A stretch of 54,961 nt of DNA from Bacteroidaceae bacterium (GCA_963659495.1 CAVKTH010000001.1:52573-107533); one strand, 5' to 3'; shown: positions 4,804 through 30,085, counted from the stretch's first letter. Numbers and translations are program-made. Notes: generated from the letters alone by a model not told the origin.

Positions 4804-6449
4804 AAGCGACTATAAAAGATTTCATGGGATGTGCAAGTGCCGAAATCGAGGCTGACAAGATTGCTTTGCTTTTGGGGCACAACGGACAAGGCAAGACATC
4901 ATCGCTCTTGCCTATCGCCGCGGCTTTGCGTGGCGGTGTACCATTGGGTATGCAGAAAGCCAAGGCCGGGATGTTGGTCAAAACTGGAGCCGGTTCAGCG
5001 TCTGTTCTTTTGGAGAATGAAACCTCCAAGGTTTCGGTATCGTGGCCAAAGTGTGAACGACGGTCTGATGGTGCCGATGCACCAGAGGCGTCGGATATCG
5101 CCGTTGGTGCTGTCAAGTTTCCTTTGATGGCTGATAAAGAAAAAGTTGAACTCTTGCGCTCTATCTTGCAATGCGAACCGGTTGAGGCAGATTTGCGTGC
5201 TGCTTTGTCTGATGCCGGGCTGAGCGATAAAATATGCGAGGTTGTTTGGCATAGTGTTGAGGTTGACGGTTGGGATGCGGCTTTGGAACGAGCTAAAGAA
5301 AAAGGACGGAGCCTAAAATCCCAATGGGGAATTATTGCAGGTGAAACCTATGGCGAGAAAAAAGCCGCCAGTTGGTTTCCAATTGGTTGGGAAAATGACC
5401 TTGAGGCAACGTCAACCGAGGCTCTTGAGACTGACGTGTCTTTGGCACGTGCAGATCTAGAGGATAAGATAGCCAATCAGGCTATCGGAGCCGATGAGCT
5501 TGCACGACTTCAGGAAAAAGCCGACAGTCTGACTGTGATAGAAAAAGAATGCGATGATGCGGCTGGAAAAGTTACAGAGGCACAAAAAATCTTAAAAGAG
5601 GCGCGCGCGGTTCGAGAAAAACTGCCAAAGCTACCGAACTACGATCTTGTTTGCCCACACTGCGGCAAGCCGGTTGTTTACCAGTTCGGCAAACTTGAGG
5701 CAATCAAACAGTCGTTGAGCGTTGAGGAGCGTGAAAAGTTGGAACAACAGATCCTTGATGCCGACAATGCTGTCTGCAAGGCTGAACGTGAGCTAAACGC
5801 TGCAAAGCATAATTTTGTTTTGGTTGACAGTACTTTGCAAGCTGCAAAAAAAGCCAAAGAAGAGCTTGAGAATAAACGAGGCAAAACCATACAGCAAGCT
5901 GAGGTTGACGATGCACGCAATGCTGTCCGCAAGGCTGAAACCCGCTTGTCAGCGTTCAATAAATATAACGAGGCACTCCGTGTCCATAACAGTATTGTTG
6001 AGAATCAATACATTATTAACGTCTTAGAACCGGAAGGAATCCGCCGTCAATCTCTTGAAAAAGGTCTGACTGATTTCAACGGCCGGATGGAATGTCTTTG
6101 TCATATTGCGGCTTGGCGTGATGTTACCATTGATGGAGATATGTCGGTTAATTACGGAGGACGCCCTTATGTTCTTTGTTCCGAGGGAGAAAAGTTTCGC
6201 GTCATGGCCGTTTTGCAAATGGCAATTGCCGAGGCTGATAATTCCGATGCCGTTGTCGTTGATGCCGCTGACATTTTGGACAACAAAGGCCGTGCCGGGC
6301 TGTTAAAGATGTTGTCCAGTATGCCTTTTGTATCATTCGTTGGTATGACGGTGTCCAAACCGGAAAGCACTCCAAGTCTTAAAAAGCTGGGTGTCGGCCG
6401 AAAATACTGGATTGAAAACGGGAACTGTGAGGAGATCTACAATGGATAG
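4794..6449 (+). CDS. SMC/Rad50/RecN-like AAA ATPase with coiled coil and CxxC hook
   Basis: Walker A GHNGQGKTS, a long Ala/Glu/Lys coiled coil, central CPHCGKP, and a C-terminal Walker-B-like AVVVDAADILD. RBS aaaggagg at 4786. Confidence 0.75.
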   Translation: MAVKATIKDFMGCASAEIEADKIALLLGHNGQGKTSSLLPIAAALRGGVPLGMQKAKAGMLVKTGAGSASVLLENETSKVSVSWPKCERRSDGADAPEASDIAVGAVKFPLMADKEKVELLRSILQCEPVEADLRAALSDAGLSDKICEVVWHSVEVDGWDAALERAKEKGRSLKSQWGIIAGETYGEKKAASWFPIGWENDLEATSTEALETDVSLARADLEDKIANQAIGADELARLQEKADSLTVIEKECDDAAGKVTEAQKILKEARAVREKLPKLPNYDLVCPHCGKPVVYQFGKLEAIKQSLSVEEREKLEQQILDADNAVCKAERELNAAKHNFVLVDSTLQAAKKAKEELENKRGKTIQQAEVDDARNAVRKAETRLSAFNKYNEALRVHNSIVENQYIINVLEPEGIRRQSLEKGLTDFNGRMECLCHIAAWRDVTIDGDMSVNYGGRPYVLCSEGEKFRVMAVLQMAIAEADNSDAVVVDAADILDNKGRAGLLKMLSSMPFVSFVGMTVSKPESTPSLKKLGVGRKYWIENGNCEEIYNG

Positions 6450-13614: not shown

Positions 13615-14100
13615 ATGAATCTTAAAATTTTTAACGGACTGCCTCCGTATGTCCGAATAACAATCTTATCGCAAATCCGCAGATTATTGTCAACATCAGT
13701 ATTTAACAAAGAAGACAGCGAAGATATCGCTCAAGACTTATTGCTCTTTTATCTGAAGCGTTTTTATACTATCCCTGATGTAGATGAGGCGTTGGTGGTT
13801 CACTCACTTAGACAATATGCCATCAATCTTCTGAAAAAACAATGTAATCGCAGGGACTACTTAAATTCCTCATTGGACTATGGCTCGTTCGATGAGGAAT
13901 TTTTTTTAGAAAATAATGACTGTTATAATTTTACAAGAGTGTCATTATCTATTTATTCAGAAAAATTTAATGCAAAAGAAAAACAAATATTTGAAATGCT
14001 TTACGAAGGATATTCAGCAAACGAAATATCCGCTGTTTTGCATATTCATAAACGTGTAATTAGGAGGTTTGTTGAAAAATTACGAAATATTTTAACATAA
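13615..14100 (+). CDS. sigma-70 family (ECF-like, regions 2 and 4) factor
   Basis: Region 2-like EDIAQDLLLFYLKRF. Region 4 HTH EKQIFEMLYEGYSANEISAVLHIHKRVIRRFVEKL. Confidence 0.55.
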   Translation: MNLKIFNGLPPYVRITILSQIRRLLSTSVFNKEDSEDIAQDLLLFYLKRFYTIPDVDEALVVHSLRQYAINLLKKQCNRRDYLNSSLDYGSFDEEFFLENNDCYNFTRVSLSIYSEKFNAKEKQIFEMLYEGYSANEISAVLHIHKRVIRRFVEKLRNILT

Positions 14101-15548: not shown

Positions 15549-16556
15549 ATGTTTATGATTAAAACCGCCGAGGCCGTGTCGTTGGGGCATCCGGACAAAA
15601 CCGCCGATTATATTTCCAGTTACATTTTGGACAGGATGATTGAGCAAGACGCCAATGTCCGTTACGCCGTGGAAGTTATGATTAAAGACAATACCGTGGT
15701 TTTGGGCGGTGAGATTTCCGGCGATGTCAATTTAACAAATGTCAAAGACTATGTTGTCGCCGCGCTTGGAGAAATCGGCTACGATGAGTTTTACAGCCAC
15801 CGCTGGAATGATAATGCCGTAAATCCGGCGAAAATTCAGGTTGTCAATCTCATCGGACGGCAATCGTCTGACATCTCGCAAGGCGTGGAGCAAAACGGCT
15901 GGGGCGATCAAGGTTTGTTTGTTGGTTACGCTTGCAAAGGCGTCGGCAATATCAGCCGTGAACAATACTTGGCGAAAAAGCTCTGTGACGCTTTGTATGA
16001 GTACGCTTTGCAGAATATCCACCTCGGAATTGACATCAAAACCCAGATTACTCTCAATGAACTGGGCGGCGTTGAAACAGCTGTTGTCGCCATTCCGATG
16101 CTGAAAGATGTGGATTTAACCACCTTTATCATTATGTCGCTGGGAGAAGAACCGGAAAACATCATTGTCAACGGCACCGGCAAATACACGCGCCACTCGT
16201 CAATTGCCGACTGCGGTGTCACAGGTCGTAAGCTGGCTTGCGATTTCTATTCGGCGGCGGCTCCGATTGGCGGTGGTTGTCCGTGGGGCAAAGACGCCAG
16301 CAAAGCTGATGTGACGCTTAATTTGTACGCCCGCAAATTGGCCTTGGAATATTTGCAGGATAATGACGAGTGTTTTGTTTACCTATCCTCGTGCATCGGC
16401 CAATCGGTACTGATGAGTGCCGAAGTTAAGACCGTCAAAAAAGGTGTTGAAACTATTAAATCGTTGTCAATTACCGCCAAACCCTCGGAAATCATCACCG
16501 AACTTGGCTTAAATAAACCAATTTTCGCAGAGCTGTGTAAAAATTGGGTATTTTAA
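15549..16556 (+). CDS. metK: S-adenosylmethionine synthetase-like protein (short, divergent MetK)
   Basis: SLGHPDKTADYIS, GWGDQGLFVGYA, DIKTQ, ADCGVTGRKL and GGGCPWGKDASKADVT are collinear with E. coli MetK GHPDK, GDQG, DAKSQ, GDCGLTGRK and GGGAFSGKDPSKVDRS. It is 335 aa versus about 384. Confidence 0.85.
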   Translation: MFMIKTAEAVSLGHPDKTADYISSYILDRMIEQDANVRYAVEVMIKDNTVVLGGEISGDVNLTNVKDYVVAALGEIGYDEFYSHRWNDNAVNPAKIQVVNLIGRQSSDISQGVEQNGWGDQGLFVGYACKGVGNISREQYLAKKLCDALYEYALQNIHLGIDIKTQITLNELGGVETAVVAIPMLKDVDLTTFIIMSLGEEPENIIVNGTGKYTRHSSIADCGVTGRKLACDFYSAAAPIGGGCPWGKDASKADVTLNLYARKLALEYLQDNDECFVYLSSCIGQSVLMSAEVKTVKKGVETIKSLSITAKPSEIITELGLNKPIFAELCKNWVF

Positions 16557-16565
16557 ATAAAAAAG

Positions 16566-16594
16566 TTGGCATAACAAAAAATATTTGATATTCT
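16566..16594 (+). promoter_or_regulatory. predicted extended -10 promoter for the three-gene island
   Basis: TTGGCA (16566-16571), N17, TG at 16586-16587, TATTCT at 16589-16594. Confidence 0.4.
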
Positions 16595-16618
16595 ACTAAT
16601 CATAGAAAGGTTTTAAAA

Positions 16619-18013
16619 ATGTTTTCTGGATATAGTAGAAAAATTCCTTCGTATAAAAAATTTAACCATATTGAATTACTTAATATGGATGATTTTTCTT
16701 TTCAATTATTGAGAAAGAATCTTAAACAGCGCAATAGACTGTATTTGGGAAAGAATAAAGCTCAAAAGATTGATCGATTACTAAAAAATAAAAGAACGCC
16801 TTATGGTTCTCCTCATATTTCTCGACCACGAGCAGAATTAGTGAGATGCATGAAACAATTTCATCCTTCTGAGATTTTAGACACTTTTAATTCCAATAGA
16901 AATTCAAAGAATTGGTTATCTGGAAACAATCGTAAAAAAGTTATAAATCGAGATATTTATATTTCAAATTTTTCTTTTATTGATGCCCCTAATCAAACTT
17001 TAGAATATTTCTATAAATTAGCAGAGTATGAGCCTTATGCATTAAAAGCTTCTATTAGTTTTGCTGATGATCAAGTGTTGGATATAGCACCTTATTTATT
17101 ATTTGGTCTAATTCAACGAGATATGTATCCTTTTATTTTAAACGGTAGAATAAAATCTGGAATTACTAATATTATAGAAAGATTAAATCTAGATAAATTT
17201 ATGGGAATTACTATTGAAAAACATCAATATAATCCTAACATTTACGCTTTACCTTTATCTTACAAGCCAACAAGGGAAAATCTTGCATCAACAAATGTTT
17301 CTACATTAGAAGTCGAAGTAACTAGACTTATTCAGAAAATAGATGAATGGCTTTCTAAATTAAATCCACCTATGGTTTTAACTGATGATGGTAAGAGTTA
17401 TGTTCAAATATTTTCTAGCGAAATTTTAGATAATGCTCAGCGACATAGTATTATCGGGAAAGAGGGAAATTGGGCAATGGCTGGTTTTATGGAATATAGA
17501 GAGGAGAAATATCATTGTTGTCTATCATTTCTAAACACAGGCTTACCAATATATAAGACTATTATTAAAACGGAAAACTCGACTGTCGCTGAAGGATTAA
17601 AACAATATATTAATCAGCATAAAGAAGTAGATAAAGACATTCTAGCTACTGTTTTTGCTCTTCAAGACGGATCCACCCGGGAAAATTACCTAGGAAGTAA
17701 AGGTGGCGTCGGAATGATGAAAATGATAAAATTTATTAATGAAATTGGAGAAACGGATGAGGATCTTAAACCAGTGATATCTATTTTGACAGGAAATGTT
17801 TGCATTCGTTTTACTGATAAATACAGAAATATAGATAATGATTCTCGTTCTAGAAATATCCAATGGTTTAATGAAAAAGAAACACCAGATTTGCCTCCTG
17901 ATAAAAATTATGCTTTCTTATTGAAAAAATATTTTCCAGGAACTATAATAACAACAAGATTTATTCTTGATGAAAAAACTTTGAGAAAGAAATTAAAAAA
18001 TGACAACGAATAA
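16619..18013 (+). CDS. GHKL (Bergerat-fold, HATPase_c-like) ATPase/kinase with an uncharacterised ~250-aa N-terminal region
   Basis: N-box SSEILDNAQRHS, G1-like SFLNTGLPI, G2 GSKGGVGMMKMIKF and terminal PGTIITTRF appear in canonical order. Confidence 0.6.
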   Translation: MFSGYSRKIPSYKKFNHIELLNMDDFSFQLLRKNLKQRNRLYLGKNKAQKIDRLLKNKRTPYGSPHISRPRAELVRCMKQFHPSEILDTFNSNRNSKNWLSGNNRKKVINRDIYISNFSFIDAPNQTLEYFYKLAEYEPYALKASISFADDQVLDIAPYLLFGLIQRDMYPFILNGRIKSGITNIIERLNLDKFMGITIEKHQYNPNIYALPLSYKPTRENLASTNVSTLEVEVTRLIQKIDEWLSKLNPPMVLTDDGKSYVQIFSSEILDNAQRHSIIGKEGNWAMAGFMEYREEKYHCCLSFLNTGLPIYKTIIKTENSTVAEGLKQYINQHKEVDKDILATVFALQDGSTRENYLGSKGGVGMMKMIKFINEIGETDEDLKPVISILTGNVCIRFTDKYRNIDNDSRSRNIQWFNEKETPDLPPDKNYAFLLKKYFPGTIITTRFILDEKTLRKKLKNDNE

Positions 18014-18323
18014 AACAAAAACAATTGATTTGGAGCAATTTGCTCAAGGTAGAATTACTTTATTGGCTGCAAAACCTAAAGGTGCTGATGCTCGTACGGC
18101 ATTAAGTATAGATGATTTAGATAAAAGTGATGATGTTGTTGATGTATTAATTCCAGATTATATTATTACACTTACTCCTTCTTTTTTCTTAGGATTATTT
18201 TCAAAAAGCTTGGATTATTTGGGGGAAGAAAAATTTTTTCAAAAGTATCATTTCAAAAATGCTAAATTTAGCATACAGCAACAAATCAAAAGTGGTGTAG
18301 ATGATTGGAAAAATGCACAATGA
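18000..18323 (+). CDS. STAS-like (DUF4325-like) small partner protein
   Basis: 14-nt overlap with the ATPase gene. VVDVLIPDYIITLTPSFFLGLFSKSL resembles the DUF4325/STAS-like core from memory. Confidence 0.45.
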   Translation: MTTNKTKTIDLEQFAQGRITLLAAKPKGADARTALSIDDLDKSDDVVDVLIPDYIITLTPSFFLGLFSKSLDYLGEEKFFQKYHFKNAKFSIQQQIKSGVDDWKNAQ

Positions 18324-18895
18324 AAAAGTTTGTAACCGTTGTAATTATATATTTATTGTTTGTTGTAATAAGTTTTATTTCTTATAAGGATGGTATCTGG
18401 GGATTTAAATTGCCAGATACTTTGGCTATTTTTAGCGGAATATTATCACTTTATGTTTTATATGAGGAATATTCAAACAGAAATAAAGATAATGATAGAA
18501 GTATTTATATTCAGCCCTTGCTTTTTGAGTTCGCAACACTCAGAGACTTAGAAAATAAAGTAGATATCATTGATAAAATGTCTATTCATGATCCAATTGA
18601 AAAACGTCAAGATGACTTGAATAATTTACAGAAAAGTATAACAAACCTTGCATTAAGAATCTCTAATAGATTACAACAAGCAGATCAGCGTTTTAATTTA
18701 AAAAATAAAAAAGTTTTTGAAGATTTTTTAGAAGAAAAAGTTTATAATAAATGTGTACACTTATCACAAAATTTACTAAAAGATTATATTGAAATAACAA
18801 CTTTTCAAAATGATGCTAATGAACTAAAAAGCAACATATTAAATTTAGAAAACTTACTAAATGGTATAATAAATCAAATATCTGATGCATTATAA
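18320..18895 (+). CDS. N-terminal 2-TM protein with a helical cytoplasmic domain (candidate membrane effector)
   Basis: ATGA overlap with the previous stop. TM1 FVTVVIIYLLFVVISFISY and TM2 LAIFSGILSLYVLY, followed by Lys/Asn/Glu/Leu-rich helices. Confidence 0.55.
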   Translation: MKKFVTVVIIYLLFVVISFISYKDGIWGFKLPDTLAIFSGILSLYVLYEEYSNRNKDNDRSIYIQPLLFEFATLRDLENKVDIIDKMSIHDPIEKRQDDLNNLQKSITNLALRISNRLQQADQRFNLKNKKVFEDFLEEKVYNKCVHLSQNLLKDYIEITTFQNDANELKSNILNLENLLNGIINQISDAL

Positions 18896-19024
18896 AAGAG
18901 TAATGGGGTCCTTCCACTGAGTAGTTCGTATGCGGGGGCGCAAGCCGCGTTAAAAATCTAGTCAAACAACTTTTTGTTTACTGGTCGCCCATCTTATAAA
19001 CATTAGGATTCATAAGGCCTACAG

Positions 19025-19095
19025 CGGAATATGAAAATATTCCGGCTGGTCATTGGTCATTTTTGCTGGTCATTTTGGCTGGTCGGTTTTCATTT
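19025..19095 (+). promoter_or_regulatory. perfect hairpin cggaatat-gaaa-atattccg followed by four tandem TGGTC(A/G)(T/G)TTT repeats
   Basis: Hairpin at 19025-19044. TGGTC copies at about 19047, 19055, 19067 and 19079, and a fifth at about 18984. It lies immediately upstream of the ParB-methylase gene. Confidence 0.5.
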
Positions 19096-19098
19096 TAA

Positions 19099-20364
19099 AT
19101 GGAGTTTATTATGGAGTTTCACGCCACGTTTCCGGTTGCGGATTTAATTCCGTATGCCCGCAATTCACGCACGCATAACGAAGATCAAATCGCTCAGATT
19201 ATGGCGAGTATTAAGGAATTCGGTTTTACCAATCCGATTTTAATCGGTGGCGACAATGTCATTATCGCCGGACACGGACGCTTGCTCGCCGCTCAGAGGC
19301 TTGGTCTAAAAGAAGTTCCGATAATCTGTTTGCCGGACTTGACTGAAACTCAGCGCAAAGCTCTGATTATCGCCGACAACAAAATCGCCATGAACGCCGG
19401 TTGGGATGAGGAAATGTTGGCTCTGGAAATGAAAGAGCTTGAAGAAAGCGATTTTAATCTTGATATTTTAGGTTTCAGCGAAGACGAGCTTAAAGAGTTT
19501 GAAAACTTTGGCGAACCTCAAACAGAGGCGAAATCGGAAGAGGACGAAATCCCCGAAGCTCCGGTAGAACCGATAACCAAACGTGGCGACGTGTGGATTT
19601 TGGGCGAACATCGTTTGATGTGCGGCGACACCACGATGTTTGACGATATGCGAAAATTGATGCGAGACAACCGAGCCGCCATGATATTCACGGATCCGCC
19701 GTATAATGTGAATTACGGCTCGACAATGAAAGACAGCATTCGCTATCACGCCGGAACGCTTGGCGGGCGTAAAATTATGAATGACAACCTCGGCGATGGT
19801 TTCCCTCAATTTTTGACCGACAGCTTGTCAAATCTTTTGATGTTTTGCCAAGGCGCCGTTTATGTTTGCATGAGTTCCAGCGAACTGCACACGCTTTACA
19901 ACGCTTTTATCGCCGCCGGTGGCAAATGGTCGACTTTTATAATCTGGGTGAAAAACACCTTCACGCTCGGACGAGCCGACTATCAACGCCAGTACGAGCC
20001 GATACTTTACGGCTGGAACGCAGACAAGCCTCATTATTGGTGCGGAGACCGAGACCAATCTGATGTTTGGGAGTATAACAAGCCGGTAAAGAACGATTTG
20101 CATCCGACAATGAAACCGGTGGAACTGGTTGAACGAGCGATTTTGAACAGTTCAAAATCCGGCGATATTGTTTTGGACGGCTTTGGCGGTTCCGGTTCCA
20201 CGCTGATCGCCTGCGAGAAAAATAACCGCAAGGCTCGTTTAATGGAACTTGATCCGAAATTTTGCGACGTGATTGTCAAACGCTGGGAGGATTACACCGG
20301 AGAAAAAGCGGTACTGCAAAATTCTGAAGAAAAAACGGAAAATAGTGTCGAATTAACTGGATAA
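19099..20364 (+). CDS. ParB/Srx-like nuclease domain fused to an N6-adenine/N4-cytosine DNA methyltransferase
   Basis: NPILIGGDNVIIAGHGRLLAA (ParB-like N-terminus), FTDPPYNV (motif IV) and LDGFGGSGSTLIAC (motif I). Confidence 0.9.
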   Translation: MEFIMEFHATFPVADLIPYARNSRTHNEDQIAQIMASIKEFGFTNPILIGGDNVIIAGHGRLLAAQRLGLKEVPIICLPDLTETQRKALIIADNKIAMNAGWDEEMLALEMKELEESDFNLDILGFSEDELKEFENFGEPQTEAKSEEDEIPEAPVEPITKRGDVWILGEHRLMCGDTTMFDDMRKLMRDNRAAMIFTDPPYNVNYGSTMKDSIRYHAGTLGGRKIMNDNLGDGFPQFLTDSLSNLLMFCQGAVYVCMSSSELHTLYNAFIAAGGKWSTFIIWVKNTFTLGRADYQRQYEPILYGWNADKPHYWCGDRDQSDVWEYNKPVKNDLHPTMKPVELVERAILNSSKSGDIVLDGFGGSGSTLIACEKNNRKARLMELDPKFCDVIVKRWEDYTGEKAVLQNSEEKTENSVELTG

Positions 20365-29003: not shown

Positions 29004-29020
29004 AATTGAAAGGAGGCAAT

Positions 29021-30085
29021 ATGCCAAGAATAAAAGATATTGTTATTACACCGGATATGTTAAATAAAATTGCTGAAATTGACCAGTTTGTTGGCTCGTG
29101 GAGTACAGATTTATCTAAATTGACCCCAGCTGAGTTAAAAGTTATGAAGCGAGTTGCAACAATTGAATCTGTTGGTTCCTCTAACCGTATCGAGGGCAAT
29201 AAAATGTCCGATGCGGAGATCGAGGAGTTGTTTAGCCATATCAACAAAAAGTCTTTTAAGTCTCGTGATGAAGAAGAAGTTGCAGGATACTCTGATTTGA
29301 TCAATACGATATTTGAGAGTTACAATGATATTCCGCTAACTGAAAATTATATTAAGCAGTTACATCAAATTCTTTTGAAATATTCTTCCAAAGATGAACG
29401 TCATCGCGGCGAATACAAAAAGGATAGTAATCGGGTGGCTGCTTATGATGCGACCGGAAAAGAAATCGGAACTATTTTTGAGACAGCTTCTCCTTTTGAT
29501 ACTCCTCACCTAATGAGCGAGTTAATTAAATGGACAAATGACACTTTTGAGGATCGGTTCTTGCACCCCATCATCACAATCGGGATATTTATTGTTCATT
29601 TTCTGGCGATACACCCATTTACGGATGGAAACGGTCGCATGTCGCGTGCCTTAACTGTTTTACTGATGTTGAAAAATAAATACAGCTATATGCCGTATGC
29701 TTCTATGGAATCAATTATCGAAGCAAGTAAAGATGCTTATTATCGGGCTTTACGCGGAACACAAAAAACGATATGGAATGATAAGGTTGATTATGAACCT
29801 TGGTTAACATTCTTTGTCACATCTCTTCAAAAGCAAAAACGAGCGTTGGAGGATAAAATTCAAAAGCTCAAGAAAGTGGATACAGATAAATTGTCTTCGA
29901 CTGCCCGTGAAATTATGAGCCTATTTGCTAACAATTCAGAAATGAGTATCTCTGAAATTGTTAAAAAGACAGGAAAAAATGCTGAAACTGTTCGTAAATC
30001 TGTACAAAGTTTGGTGAAAAAAGGATATTTAACTAAACTAGGAACAACACGCGGTGTTTCATACATACGAACAAGTGAAGAATAA
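29021..30085 (+). CDS. Fic-domain AMPylase-type protein with an N-terminal inhibitory motif and a C-terminal winged helix
   Basis: Fic motif HPFTDGNGRMSRAL, inhibitory-helix motif SNRIEG (SxxxEG) and a C-terminal wHTH ISEIVKKTGKNAETVRKSVQSLVKKGYL. AT-rich. RBS aggagg. Confidence 0.85.
   Translation: MPRIKDIVITPDMLNKIAEIDQFVGSWSTDLSKLTPAELKVMKRVATIESVGSSNRIEGNKMSDAEIEELFSHINKKSFKSRDEEEVAGYSDLINTIFESYNDIPLTENYIKQLHQILLKYSSKDERHRGEYKKDSNRVAAYDATGKEIGTIFETASPFDTPHLMSELIKWTNDTFEDRFLHPIITIGIFIVHFLAIHPFTDGNGRMSRALTVLLMLKNKYSYMPYASMESIIEASKDAYYRALRGTQKTIWNDKVDYEPWLTFFVTSLQKQKRALEDKIQKLKKVDTDKLSSTAREIMSLFANNSEMSISEIVKKTGKNAETVRKSVQSLVKKGYLTKLGTTRGVSYIRTSEE

Follow-up and report, generated by a model that had tools for sequence, protein, structure and literature searches.

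The 54,961-nucleotide (nt) stretch of DNA from a Bacteroidaceae bacterium analyzed here (GCA_963659495.1 CAVKTH010000001.1:52573-107533, hereafter the window) carries, in a prophage, three overlapping open reading frames (ORFs) that form a conserved, horizontally mobile three-gene unit found across phyla and mobile elements. Their products are putatively a GHKL-type sensor kinase, a small STAS-like partner and a membrane effector, and we tentatively propose that together they form a kinase-gated membrane toxin–antitoxin or abortive-infection (Abi) module. The genes and the island that holds them are as follows.

16619-18013, + strand: ORF1, 464 amino acids (aa)
18000-18323, + strand: ORF2, 107 aa
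18320-18895, + strand: ORF3, 191 aa counted from the ATG, with an in-frame TTG upstream at 18305
16544-18905, no strand: AT-rich cargo island, 27.9% GC, with bounds taken from the sister phages L040-L044 (see below)

Read base by base, ORF1 and ORF2 overlap by 14 nt (...AAT GAC AAC GAA TAA over ATG ACA ACG) and ORF2 and ORF3 by the 4 nt of an ATGA (CAA TGA over ATG AAA). The three-gene block has a GC content of 27.9%, as against 40.6% and 42.4% in its flanks, and it lies between a SAM-synthetase-like (phage metK-like) gene upstream (15549-16556) and a ParB_N + N6_N4 methylase gene downstream (19099-20364). Coordinates, overlaps and GC content thus confirm what an earlier sequence-only reading of this DNA had described, namely three overlapping ORFs in an AT-rich block between the metK-like and ParB-methylase genes.

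The evidence that the three genes belong together comes from their relatives. A word-indexed search for relatives of ORF1 gave 15 clusters only, and an exhaustive profile search gave 1,053 representatives at 50% identity (E ≤ 1e-3), 469 of them at E ≤ 1e-30. All 1,053 are unnamed and without a Pfam domain. A homologue of ORF1 defined 106 loci, and 101 of these had enough downstream sequence for ORF2 to be counted. An ORF2-like gene directly adjoins ORF1 in 96 of these 101 by hidden Markov model (HMM), and three more have a small adjoining protein just under the HMM cutoff in which the TGRKNG…ITSSYFLGL core can be recognized by eye, which brings the count to ~99/101. ORF2 is followed by a third gene in 89 of 91 loci. 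Its product has a median length of 192 aa, the median ORF2-ORF3 gap is 2 nt, and in the two loci that lack it the copies are frameshifted near an insertion sequence (IS) transposase. At other loci the neighboring genes of the trio either overlap, by 4-23 nt, or are at most 6 nt apart. The trio that had been put forward from a single DNA is therefore syntenic in other genomes. An alphaproteobacterial metagenome-assembled genome (MAG) with two copies of the trio (L018/L019; 9501-10116 and 11772-14057) has a third gene that seems to be frameshifted and an IS-type transposase ORF of 761 aa ~1.7 kb downstream, and these copies may be decaying.

Hosts of the trio include Alpha- and Gammaproteobacteria, Clostridium perfringens, Koribacter (Acidobacteria), Bacteroidota and Opitutaceae (Verrucomicrobia). 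A copy of ORF1 that is 99% identical to that of the window is present in a contig of a gut alphaproteobacterial MAG, where it is split into two ORFs at residues 364/366 by a frameshift or an assembly error (L009, 3738-5132), and other relatives are found in human-gut metagenomes. These two observations point to a gut alphaproteobacterium, as yet uncultured, as the probable host. The trio lies in prophages in the window, in L001-L004 and in Koribacter, there between a D12 methylase and the terminase, and it is also present in an integrase island (L005) and in IMG/VR contigs. On plasmids it is essentially the sole cargo of a 6.8-kb MOBQ mobilizable plasmid of Providencia, follows parAB on a Vibrio plasmid and is located between two recombinases on a Pantoea plasmid, and on all three its genes are annotated ‘hypothetical protein’. 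In a survey of 132 neighboring proteins from 18 loci, made with no background comparison, the most common Pfam family was Phage_integrase (6), while DruA, AbiEi, Fic, D12/type II methyltransferase, PD-T4-6, PD-Lambda-5 and PDC-S04 had two matches each.

The site that the trio occupies in the window is itself informative. Five IMG/VR phages (L040-L044), in which the MetK-like protein is 80-82% identical to that of the window, align with it as far as ~16540. The alignment resumes at 18906, 11 nt past the ORF3 stop, and between these points the phages hold unrelated DNA of 1.0-1.7 kb. Because these sister phages set the bounds of the island at ~16544 and ~18905, the inserted DNA is exactly the operon. 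In L043 the slot (5154-6134) encodes a 326-aa protein whose C-terminus matches a Doc-family toxin (PDB 9vzc, E = 2.6e-4), and in L041 and L042 (5380-6225) it encodes a 149-aa protein, which looks by eye only like a Panacea/DUF4065-type antitoxin, together with a transmembrane (TM) protein of 128 aa. The slots of L040 and L044 each contain a soluble protein of ~300 aa and a multi-TM protein of ~165 aa. Since one alternative occupant is a verified Doc-family toxin and the others are toxin- or Abi-like by eye, the slot between the metK-like and methylase genes is a hotspot for small accessory modules, with the trio as one interchangeable occupant. The pairs in L040 (5369-6732) and L044 (7050-8494), each with a soluble protein of ~290-310 aa and a 4-TM protein of ~160-170 aa, are like lambda RexA/RexB in size and topology, and they had no match among PDB sequences.

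ORF1 is predicted to consist of a basic N-terminal region, a middle α/β domain and a SpoIIAB-class GHKL domain, and we designate it ‘K’, the putative sensor kinase. The features used below are these.

16619-16942, + strand: ORF1 residues 1-108, basic helical region, isoelectric point (pI) 10.8, a candidate nucleic-acid-binding sensor
17420-17449, + strand: N-box E268-ILDN272-AQRH276-S, from conservation and alignment to the SpoIIAB, VapK and CapK N-boxes
17534-17542, + strand: G1-box position N306-T-G308, in which the canonical adenine-binding Asp is missing
17702-17713, + strand: G2 box G362-G-V-G365, the ATP-lid glycines, with G363 and G365 conserved
17936-17962, + strand: G3-like PGTIITTRF, with G441, T442 and F448 conserved

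An AlphaFold (AF2) model of ORF1 built from the family alignment has a mean predicted local distance difference test score (pLDDT) of 85 and a predicted template modelling score (pTM) of 0.79. When it was compared with the PDB by Foldseek, no match was significant, and the only meaningful ones were SpoIIAB, UsfX and a histidine-kinase ATP-binding domain (probability 0.35-0.66, E = 0.08-0.7), the best entries being 1TID, 1L0O, 1TH8 and 8IH8, and in BFVD a phage ‘HK/HSP90-like ATPase’ ranks second (probability 0.44). Profile comparison by hhalign of the C-terminal half (residues 225-464) with SpoIIAB, VapK and CapK gave P = 0.0036-0.034, and the ORF1 N-box pairs with the N-boxes of all three wherever alignments were printed. 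Pfam HATPase models, and an hmmsearch of the ORF1 profile against PDB sequences, gave nothing beyond spurious matches. Among 148 representatives of the family the invariant residues are E268, N272, G363, G365, G392, N418 and G441, which places E268 and N272 of the N-box in 148/148, with H276 in 144/148, G308 in 147/148, T442 in 143/148 and F448 in 140/148. The motifs quoted in the sequence-only reading are thus present and most are family-wide conserved positions, and its assignment of the C-terminal half to the GHKL fold agrees with meaningful Foldseek matches that are all GHKL, with a P of ~0.004 in the profile comparison of the domain and with the invariant N-box, G2 and G3 residues. The exception is the ‘G1-like LNTGLPI’, where the position is right but the defining Asp is missing in all 148 relatives. 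On the strength of the model and of these conserved positions we hold with high confidence that the C-terminal half of ORF1 adopts a SpoIIAB-class Bergerat fold with a non-canonical nucleotide pocket.

The N-terminal 108 residues of ORF1 have a pI above 9.6 in all 139 relatives (median 11.3), with R94, W99 and R105 near-invariant, and that this region is basic in every relative suggests that it might bind nucleic acid. The middle domain (residues 109-226) has an alternating β/α pattern. A STAS-like identity for it, as in CapK and VapK, received no support from profile comparison (P = 0.014-0.7) and stays a conjecture from the secondary-structure pattern. A near-invariant Q-D-G at residues 349-352 (window 17663-17674; Q349 and D350 each in 141/148) is situated in the predicted ATP-lid region and adjoins residues 355-359, the one loop that is modeled with low confidence. 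This motif might offset the missing G1 Asp or touch the substrate.

ORF2, which we designate ‘S’ for a putative kinase substrate and antitoxin, is a small α/β protein that appears to be STAS-like and related to DUF4325. Its key feature is a single residue.

18180-18182, + strand: codon of Ser61 in ORF2, a candidate phospho-acceptor that stands at the N-terminus of helix 60-82, with invariant Phe62 directly after it

The AF2 model of ORF2 (pLDDT 92.9) has a β-α-β-α-β-α fold with Ser61 at the N-terminus of the long helix 60-82, and Ser61, Phe62, Gly65, Gly28, Arg32, Pro52 and Phe79 are invariant in 121/121 relatives. A profile search puts the family at ≥ 253 proteins, two of which UniRef labels ‘DUF4325 domain-containing’. 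ORF2 of the window itself has no match to Pfam DUF4325 (PF14213) at E ≤ 1, and DUF4325 is the only Pfam family that recurs among its relatives, in 5 of 25 at E ≤ 1, all of them sub-threshold (E = 0.021 or weaker). The best-scoring relative, P0089, reaches 18 bits (E = 0.0024), where the gathering threshold is 23 bits. These recurring sub-threshold matches suggest a distant relationship. A Foldseek search with the model gave nothing significant, the STAS protein RsbS being third with a probability of 0.33, and an hmmsearch of the family profile against PDB sequences gave spurious matches only. The STAS-like character claimed for ORF2 in the sequence-only reading is accordingly best regarded as probable but unproven. 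In its favor are the DUF4325 matches, the two UniRef labels and an α/β model with an invariant Ser, and against it are structure and profile comparisons with STAS proteins that are not significant.

ORF3, designated ‘M’ for putative membrane effector, is predicted to have N-terminal hydrophobic helices, a basic patch, the sequence SIYIQPLL and a helical or coiled-coil domain of ~130 aa.

18500-18523, + strand: SIYIQPLL, ORF3 residues 61-68, which corresponds to the family motif [FYW]xxx[IV]xxP[LIVM] past the TM segment and basic patch

In the window protein the first helix is strongly hydrophobic and the second moderately so, and the architecture common to the family runs from a conserved Trp through a hydrophobic helix, a basic patch and the [FYW]xxx[IV]xxP[LIVM] motif to the helical domain of ~130 aa. 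In the family columns Phe occurs in 45/68 opposite N58 of the window protein and Pro, which is P66 in the window, in 37/68. BLAST with ORF3 detected homologues in the closest clade only. A jackhmmer search from the window ORF3 reaches 44 of the 68 unique third-position proteins, and when runs were started from every member all 68 fell into one connected component with no matches to shuffled decoys. Mean column identity is 11-17% for ORF3 compared with 31-47% for ORF1 and 29-41% for ORF2, making ORF3 the fastest-evolving component. In the PDB all matches to the profile of the ORF3 family are coiled-coil and helical-bundle proteins, chemoreceptor signaling domains among them, and we read these matches as compositional similarity. 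Hydropathy, family architecture and the coiled-coil type of the PDB matches all agree with the original description of ORF3 as a membrane protein with a helical domain. Neither a PIN domain nor any recurrent Pfam domain is present in 26 third-position proteins. The further suggestion that ORF3 is SLATT-like was rejected, as it comes down to one chance-level match (E = 0.019) among these 26 proteins to DUF4231, which we take to be a member of the SLATT clan, and ORF3 of the window itself had no such match.

None of the three proteins matches a Pfam, NCBIfam or PADLOC model, and the HMMs of PADLOC-DB v2.0.0 returned zero families at E ≤ 1 for all three. Only two PHROGs match them, both of unknown function, and a megablast of the operon region against INPHARED phages and E. 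coli genomes gave no match. The earlier statement that the trio corresponds to no named defense system stands for PADLOC-DB v2 and for the literature searched, in which no paper names it. Taken as a whole, that reading was largely sound on the conserved trio, the GHKL fold, the membrane nature of ORF3 and the lack of a named system, it failed on SLATT, the promoter (see below) and the G1-like motif, and the STAS link of ORF2 is weaker than it stated.

A precedent for such an arrangement is provided by VapKSC and CapK–CapS (Chambers et al., EMBO J 2026; PMC13373217). VapKSC consists of the GHKL kinase VapK, the DUF4325-STAS antitoxin VapS and the PIN toxin VapC, and in CapK–CapS an HTH-STAS-GHKL kinase is paired with a STAS-wHTH (winged helix-turn-helix, HTH) repressor that controls CBASS, Bub and Thoeris operons (PMC13373217). 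In both, a SpoIIAB-like kinase activated by single-stranded DNA phosphorylates a conserved Ser in the STAS protein, whereupon the CapS repressor leaves the DNA or, with phosphorylation of VapS at Ser48, VapC is freed, and VapKSC protects against phage by ~2 logs (PMC13373217). A variant with a membrane effector is not mentioned in that paper (PMC13373217). Because this precedent exists, which was not part of the sequence-only reading, the design principle of the trio can no longer be called undescribed.

We now put forward a hypothetical mechanism in which the trio, as a membrane toxin–antitoxin or abortive-infection module gated by a kinase, follows the logic of VapKSC, a proposal that in its full form we hold at somewhat less than even chances. 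ORF2 in its unphosphorylated form would keep ORF3 inactive. The basic N-terminal region of ORF1 would sense a cue of infection or stress, possibly nucleic acid, and the activated ORF1, as a kinase of the SpoIIAB class, would phosphorylate Ser61 of ORF2. Phosphorylated ORF2 would then let go of ORF3, and the freed ORF3 would oligomerize and damage the membrane, stopping both the cell and the infecting phage. We infer the kinase activity, the Ser61 target, the ORF2–ORF3 interaction, the toxicity of ORF3, the trigger and the anti-phage phenotype. A more specific version, possible but on balance improbable, is that the trio is the first example of a large, unnamed K-S-M family in which a GHKL enzyme without the adenine-binding Asp, perhaps using another nucleotide or another mode of recognition, would sense nucleic acid by means of its basic N-terminal domain, phosphorylate a DUF4325-like protein and so unleash a coiled-coil membrane effector. 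If the proposed function holds, the ‘phospho-release’ principle of GHKL kinases and STAS proteins (CapKS, VapKSC) would extend from transcription factors and nucleases to membrane effectors. The catalogue of defense and addiction systems on mobile elements would also gain a compact (2.4 kb), widespread and unannotated module with more than 1,000 sequence clusters that spans Proteobacteria, Firmicutes, Acidobacteria, Bacteroidota and Verrucomicrobia in prophages and plasmids, and the family-wide loss of the G1 Asp poses a concrete biochemical question on nucleotide use in a GHKL enzyme.

Several results weigh against this proposal. Opposite D81 of SpoIIAB in the G1 box, 98 of the 148 relatives have Ser, 45 have Asn, 3 have Thr and 2 have another residue, and none has Asp, the residue that makes the adenine contact in GHKL enzymes. 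Because this Asp is replaced in every relative, an ATP-dependent kinase activity of ORF1 is not assured. All Foldseek E-values for the ORF1 and ORF2 models are above 0.04, the homology of ORF1 to VapK and CapK is not statistically significant (P = 0.005-0.05), and neither is that of the ORF2 family to VapS, CapS or SpoIIAA by hhalign with shallow and deep profiles (P = 0.07-0.65). Pfam and PDB profile searches found no recognizable toxin domain in ORF3, and its very fast divergence would equally fit a sensor or adaptor role. The defense genes near the trio are context rather than proven enrichment, given that the survey had no background set, and tblastn found no sequenced phage in INPHARED with an ORF1 homologue.

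The loss of the G1 Asp bears on an alternative in which ORF1, as a pseudokinase or as a nucleoside triphosphatase (NTPase) with altered base specificity, would be a degenerate GHKL protein that acts as a nucleotide-dependent switch and controls ORF2 and ORF3 by binding and release with no phosphorylation of Ser61. That Ser, Asn or Thr takes the place of the Asp and that the residues which bind Mg and phosphate are kept speak for such a switch, the near-invariant lid residue D350 could have taken on a new role, and SpoIIAB itself also acts by nucleotide-state-dependent binding. We nevertheless consider this alternative unlikely, as the invariant and putatively catalytic Glu268 and Asn272, the G2 glycines and Ser61 of ORF2 make up the pattern of a true kinase–substrate pair.

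We find equally doubtful the possibility that ORF3 is not a toxin but a sensor or membrane anchor, which would detect an event at the envelope, for example the injection of phage DNA or stress on the membrane, and would then recruit ORF1 and ORF2 or switch them on, the output being the phosphorylation or sequestration of some other host or phage target in a superinfection-exclusion or signaling module. No further conserved output gene accompanies the trio at the examined loci, the trio is essentially the sole cargo of the 6.8-kb plasmid, and the order of its genes mirrors the kinase–antitoxin–toxin order of VapKSC. A sensor would on the other hand account for the rapid evolution of ORF3 (11-17% identity), which fits a surface engaged in an arms race, and for its having neither an enzymatic nor a known pore-forming domain. 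Membrane-anchored helical bundles are moreover typical of signaling, and chemoreceptor domains are among the compositional matches.

That SpoIIAB and UsfX are the best structural matches of ORF1 raises the question of a classical anti-sigma/anti-anti-sigma regulator, in which ORF1 would sequester a sigma or other transcription factor, ORF2 would relieve this and the pair would tune prophage or host expression. The candidate target is a 161-aa ORF 2.5 kb upstream in the window (13615-14100), with a weak match to a GerE/LuxR-type HTH (sigma region-4-like) and a weak match to mycobacteriophage Gp53. This ORF is conserved phage backbone and is outside the island, and we reject the regulator, which has in our view very little probability, because the sigma-like gene belongs to the backbone common to sister phages that have no trio. 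In addition, the trio moves as a unit to plasmids, chromosomal islands and different phages, the membrane protein is always co-inherited, and neither a conserved sigma factor nor a PP2C phosphatase turned up in the neighborhood of the trio.

Least probable of all is a pure addiction module that stabilizes its mobile element by post-segregational killing with no anti-phage role, since, even though the trio makes up the whole cargo of one small mobilizable plasmid and adjoins parAB on another plasmid, and the same slot holds a Doc-family toxin in one sister phage and by eye a Panacea-type antitoxin pair in others, a three-component kinase-gated design implies sensing of a signal rather than simple differential stability and the closest analogue, VapKSC, protects against phage. 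In mechanism it overlaps with the kinase-gated module that we favor and differs from it only in biological role.

Other features of the window are less closely connected with the trio. The first is the extended -10 promoter that had been predicted for the operon.

16566-16594, + strand: putative promoter TTGGCA-17-TATTCT with TG, a weak 9/12 match to the consensus

Matches of this quality occur there at chance level, with 15 promoter-like sites in the promoter region compared with 15.6 ± 3.4 in shuffles, so that the promoter may be real but receives no support from the analysis. Just upstream of the ParB_N–methylase gene GCTGGTC occurs three times (19045, 19065 and 19078; 19045-19091), the first two copies being contained in GCTGGTCATT. 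The cluster, which might serve as an operator or as a binding site of the ParB type, is located in the backbone common to the sister phages, and the whole window has five copies of the heptamer on the + strand and three on the - strand. When all ORFs of the window were scanned with PADLOC, methyltransferase models dominated the output, and two proteins matched many type II, orphan and cytosine DNA-methyltransferase models. One of these two proteins may be the ParB_N-methylase. The Fic cargo noted earlier in the same phage is supported, as a 359-aa ORF (29006-30085) has the canonical Fic motif HPFTDGNGR at ~29612.

How the trio relates to known systems can be considered system by system, with VapKSC, the closest, last. 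Lambda RexAB is a membrane abortive-infection pair of a prophage, and the trio is like it in being accessory cargo of a prophage that couples a cytoplasmic sensor with a small membrane protein. The two have no sequence or domain relationship, and the trio has a kinase-like protein and a STAS-like intermediary besides. SpoIIAB–SpoIIAA and RsbW–RsbV are the best structural matches of the C-terminal half of ORF1, and the trio has in common with them N-box, G2 and G3 motifs in the same order and a small α/β partner protein in which a Ser stands at the N-terminus of a helix. It differs in that ORF1 is three times larger and has lost the G1 Asp, the unit has no sigma factor or PP2C phosphatase, and there is an obligatory membrane partner and carriage on mobile elements.

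CapK–CapS is also a GHKL kinase with a STAS-type substrate that has a conserved Ser, CapK too carries additional domains at its N-terminus, and a collinear alignment of ORF1 with CapK, weak and not significant, extends over ~300 columns. ORF2, however, is a single domain of 107 aa without the wHTH DNA-binding domain of CapS, and no immune operon lies downstream, there being one membrane-protein gene after which the phage backbone resumes. In the Francisella phage vB_FhiM_KIRK the genes Fhv_0046-0048, flanked by those for the CI repressor and the integrase, are annotated as encoding a hypothetical protein (293 aa), a DUF4325 protein (112 aa) and a TM protein (125 aa) (PMC7924643). They are possibly related to the trio in a shorter form, and PHROG 3364, to which ORF1 has a match, likewise has a length of ~300 aa.

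The likeness to VapKSC is in the three-gene order of a large GHKL protein, a STAS-like protein of ~110 aa and an effector, in a SpoIIAB-class kinase whose partner has an absolutely conserved Ser beside aromatic residues at a helix start, and in location on mobile elements near defense genes. The Ser61 motif of ORF2 is equivalent to the surroundings of S48 in VapS and of S54-F55 in CapS. ORF1 residues 122-461 are collinear with VapK 17-295 (hhalign P = 0.02 over the full length and 0.0047 for the GHKL half), and VapK, like ORF1, has no Pfam match. Sequence homology of the trio to VapK and VapS does not reach significance (P = 0.005-0.5). ORF1 is, on the other hand, ~170 aa longer than VapK and has the basic N-terminal region, and VapK and CapK keep the G1 Asp (DFGVG in VapK) that the ORF1 family lacks. 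VapS is a bona fide member of DUF4325 (62.7 bits) while ORF2 is below the threshold for that family, and hhalign of ORF2 with VapS gave P = 0.08-0.2. The effector here would be a membrane-anchored coiled-coil protein, whereas VapC is a PIN nuclease. By analogy, the trio is best described as a GHKL protein and a STAS-like partner joined with a putative membrane effector, an arrangement that most resembles VapKSC with a membrane protein in place of the nuclease.

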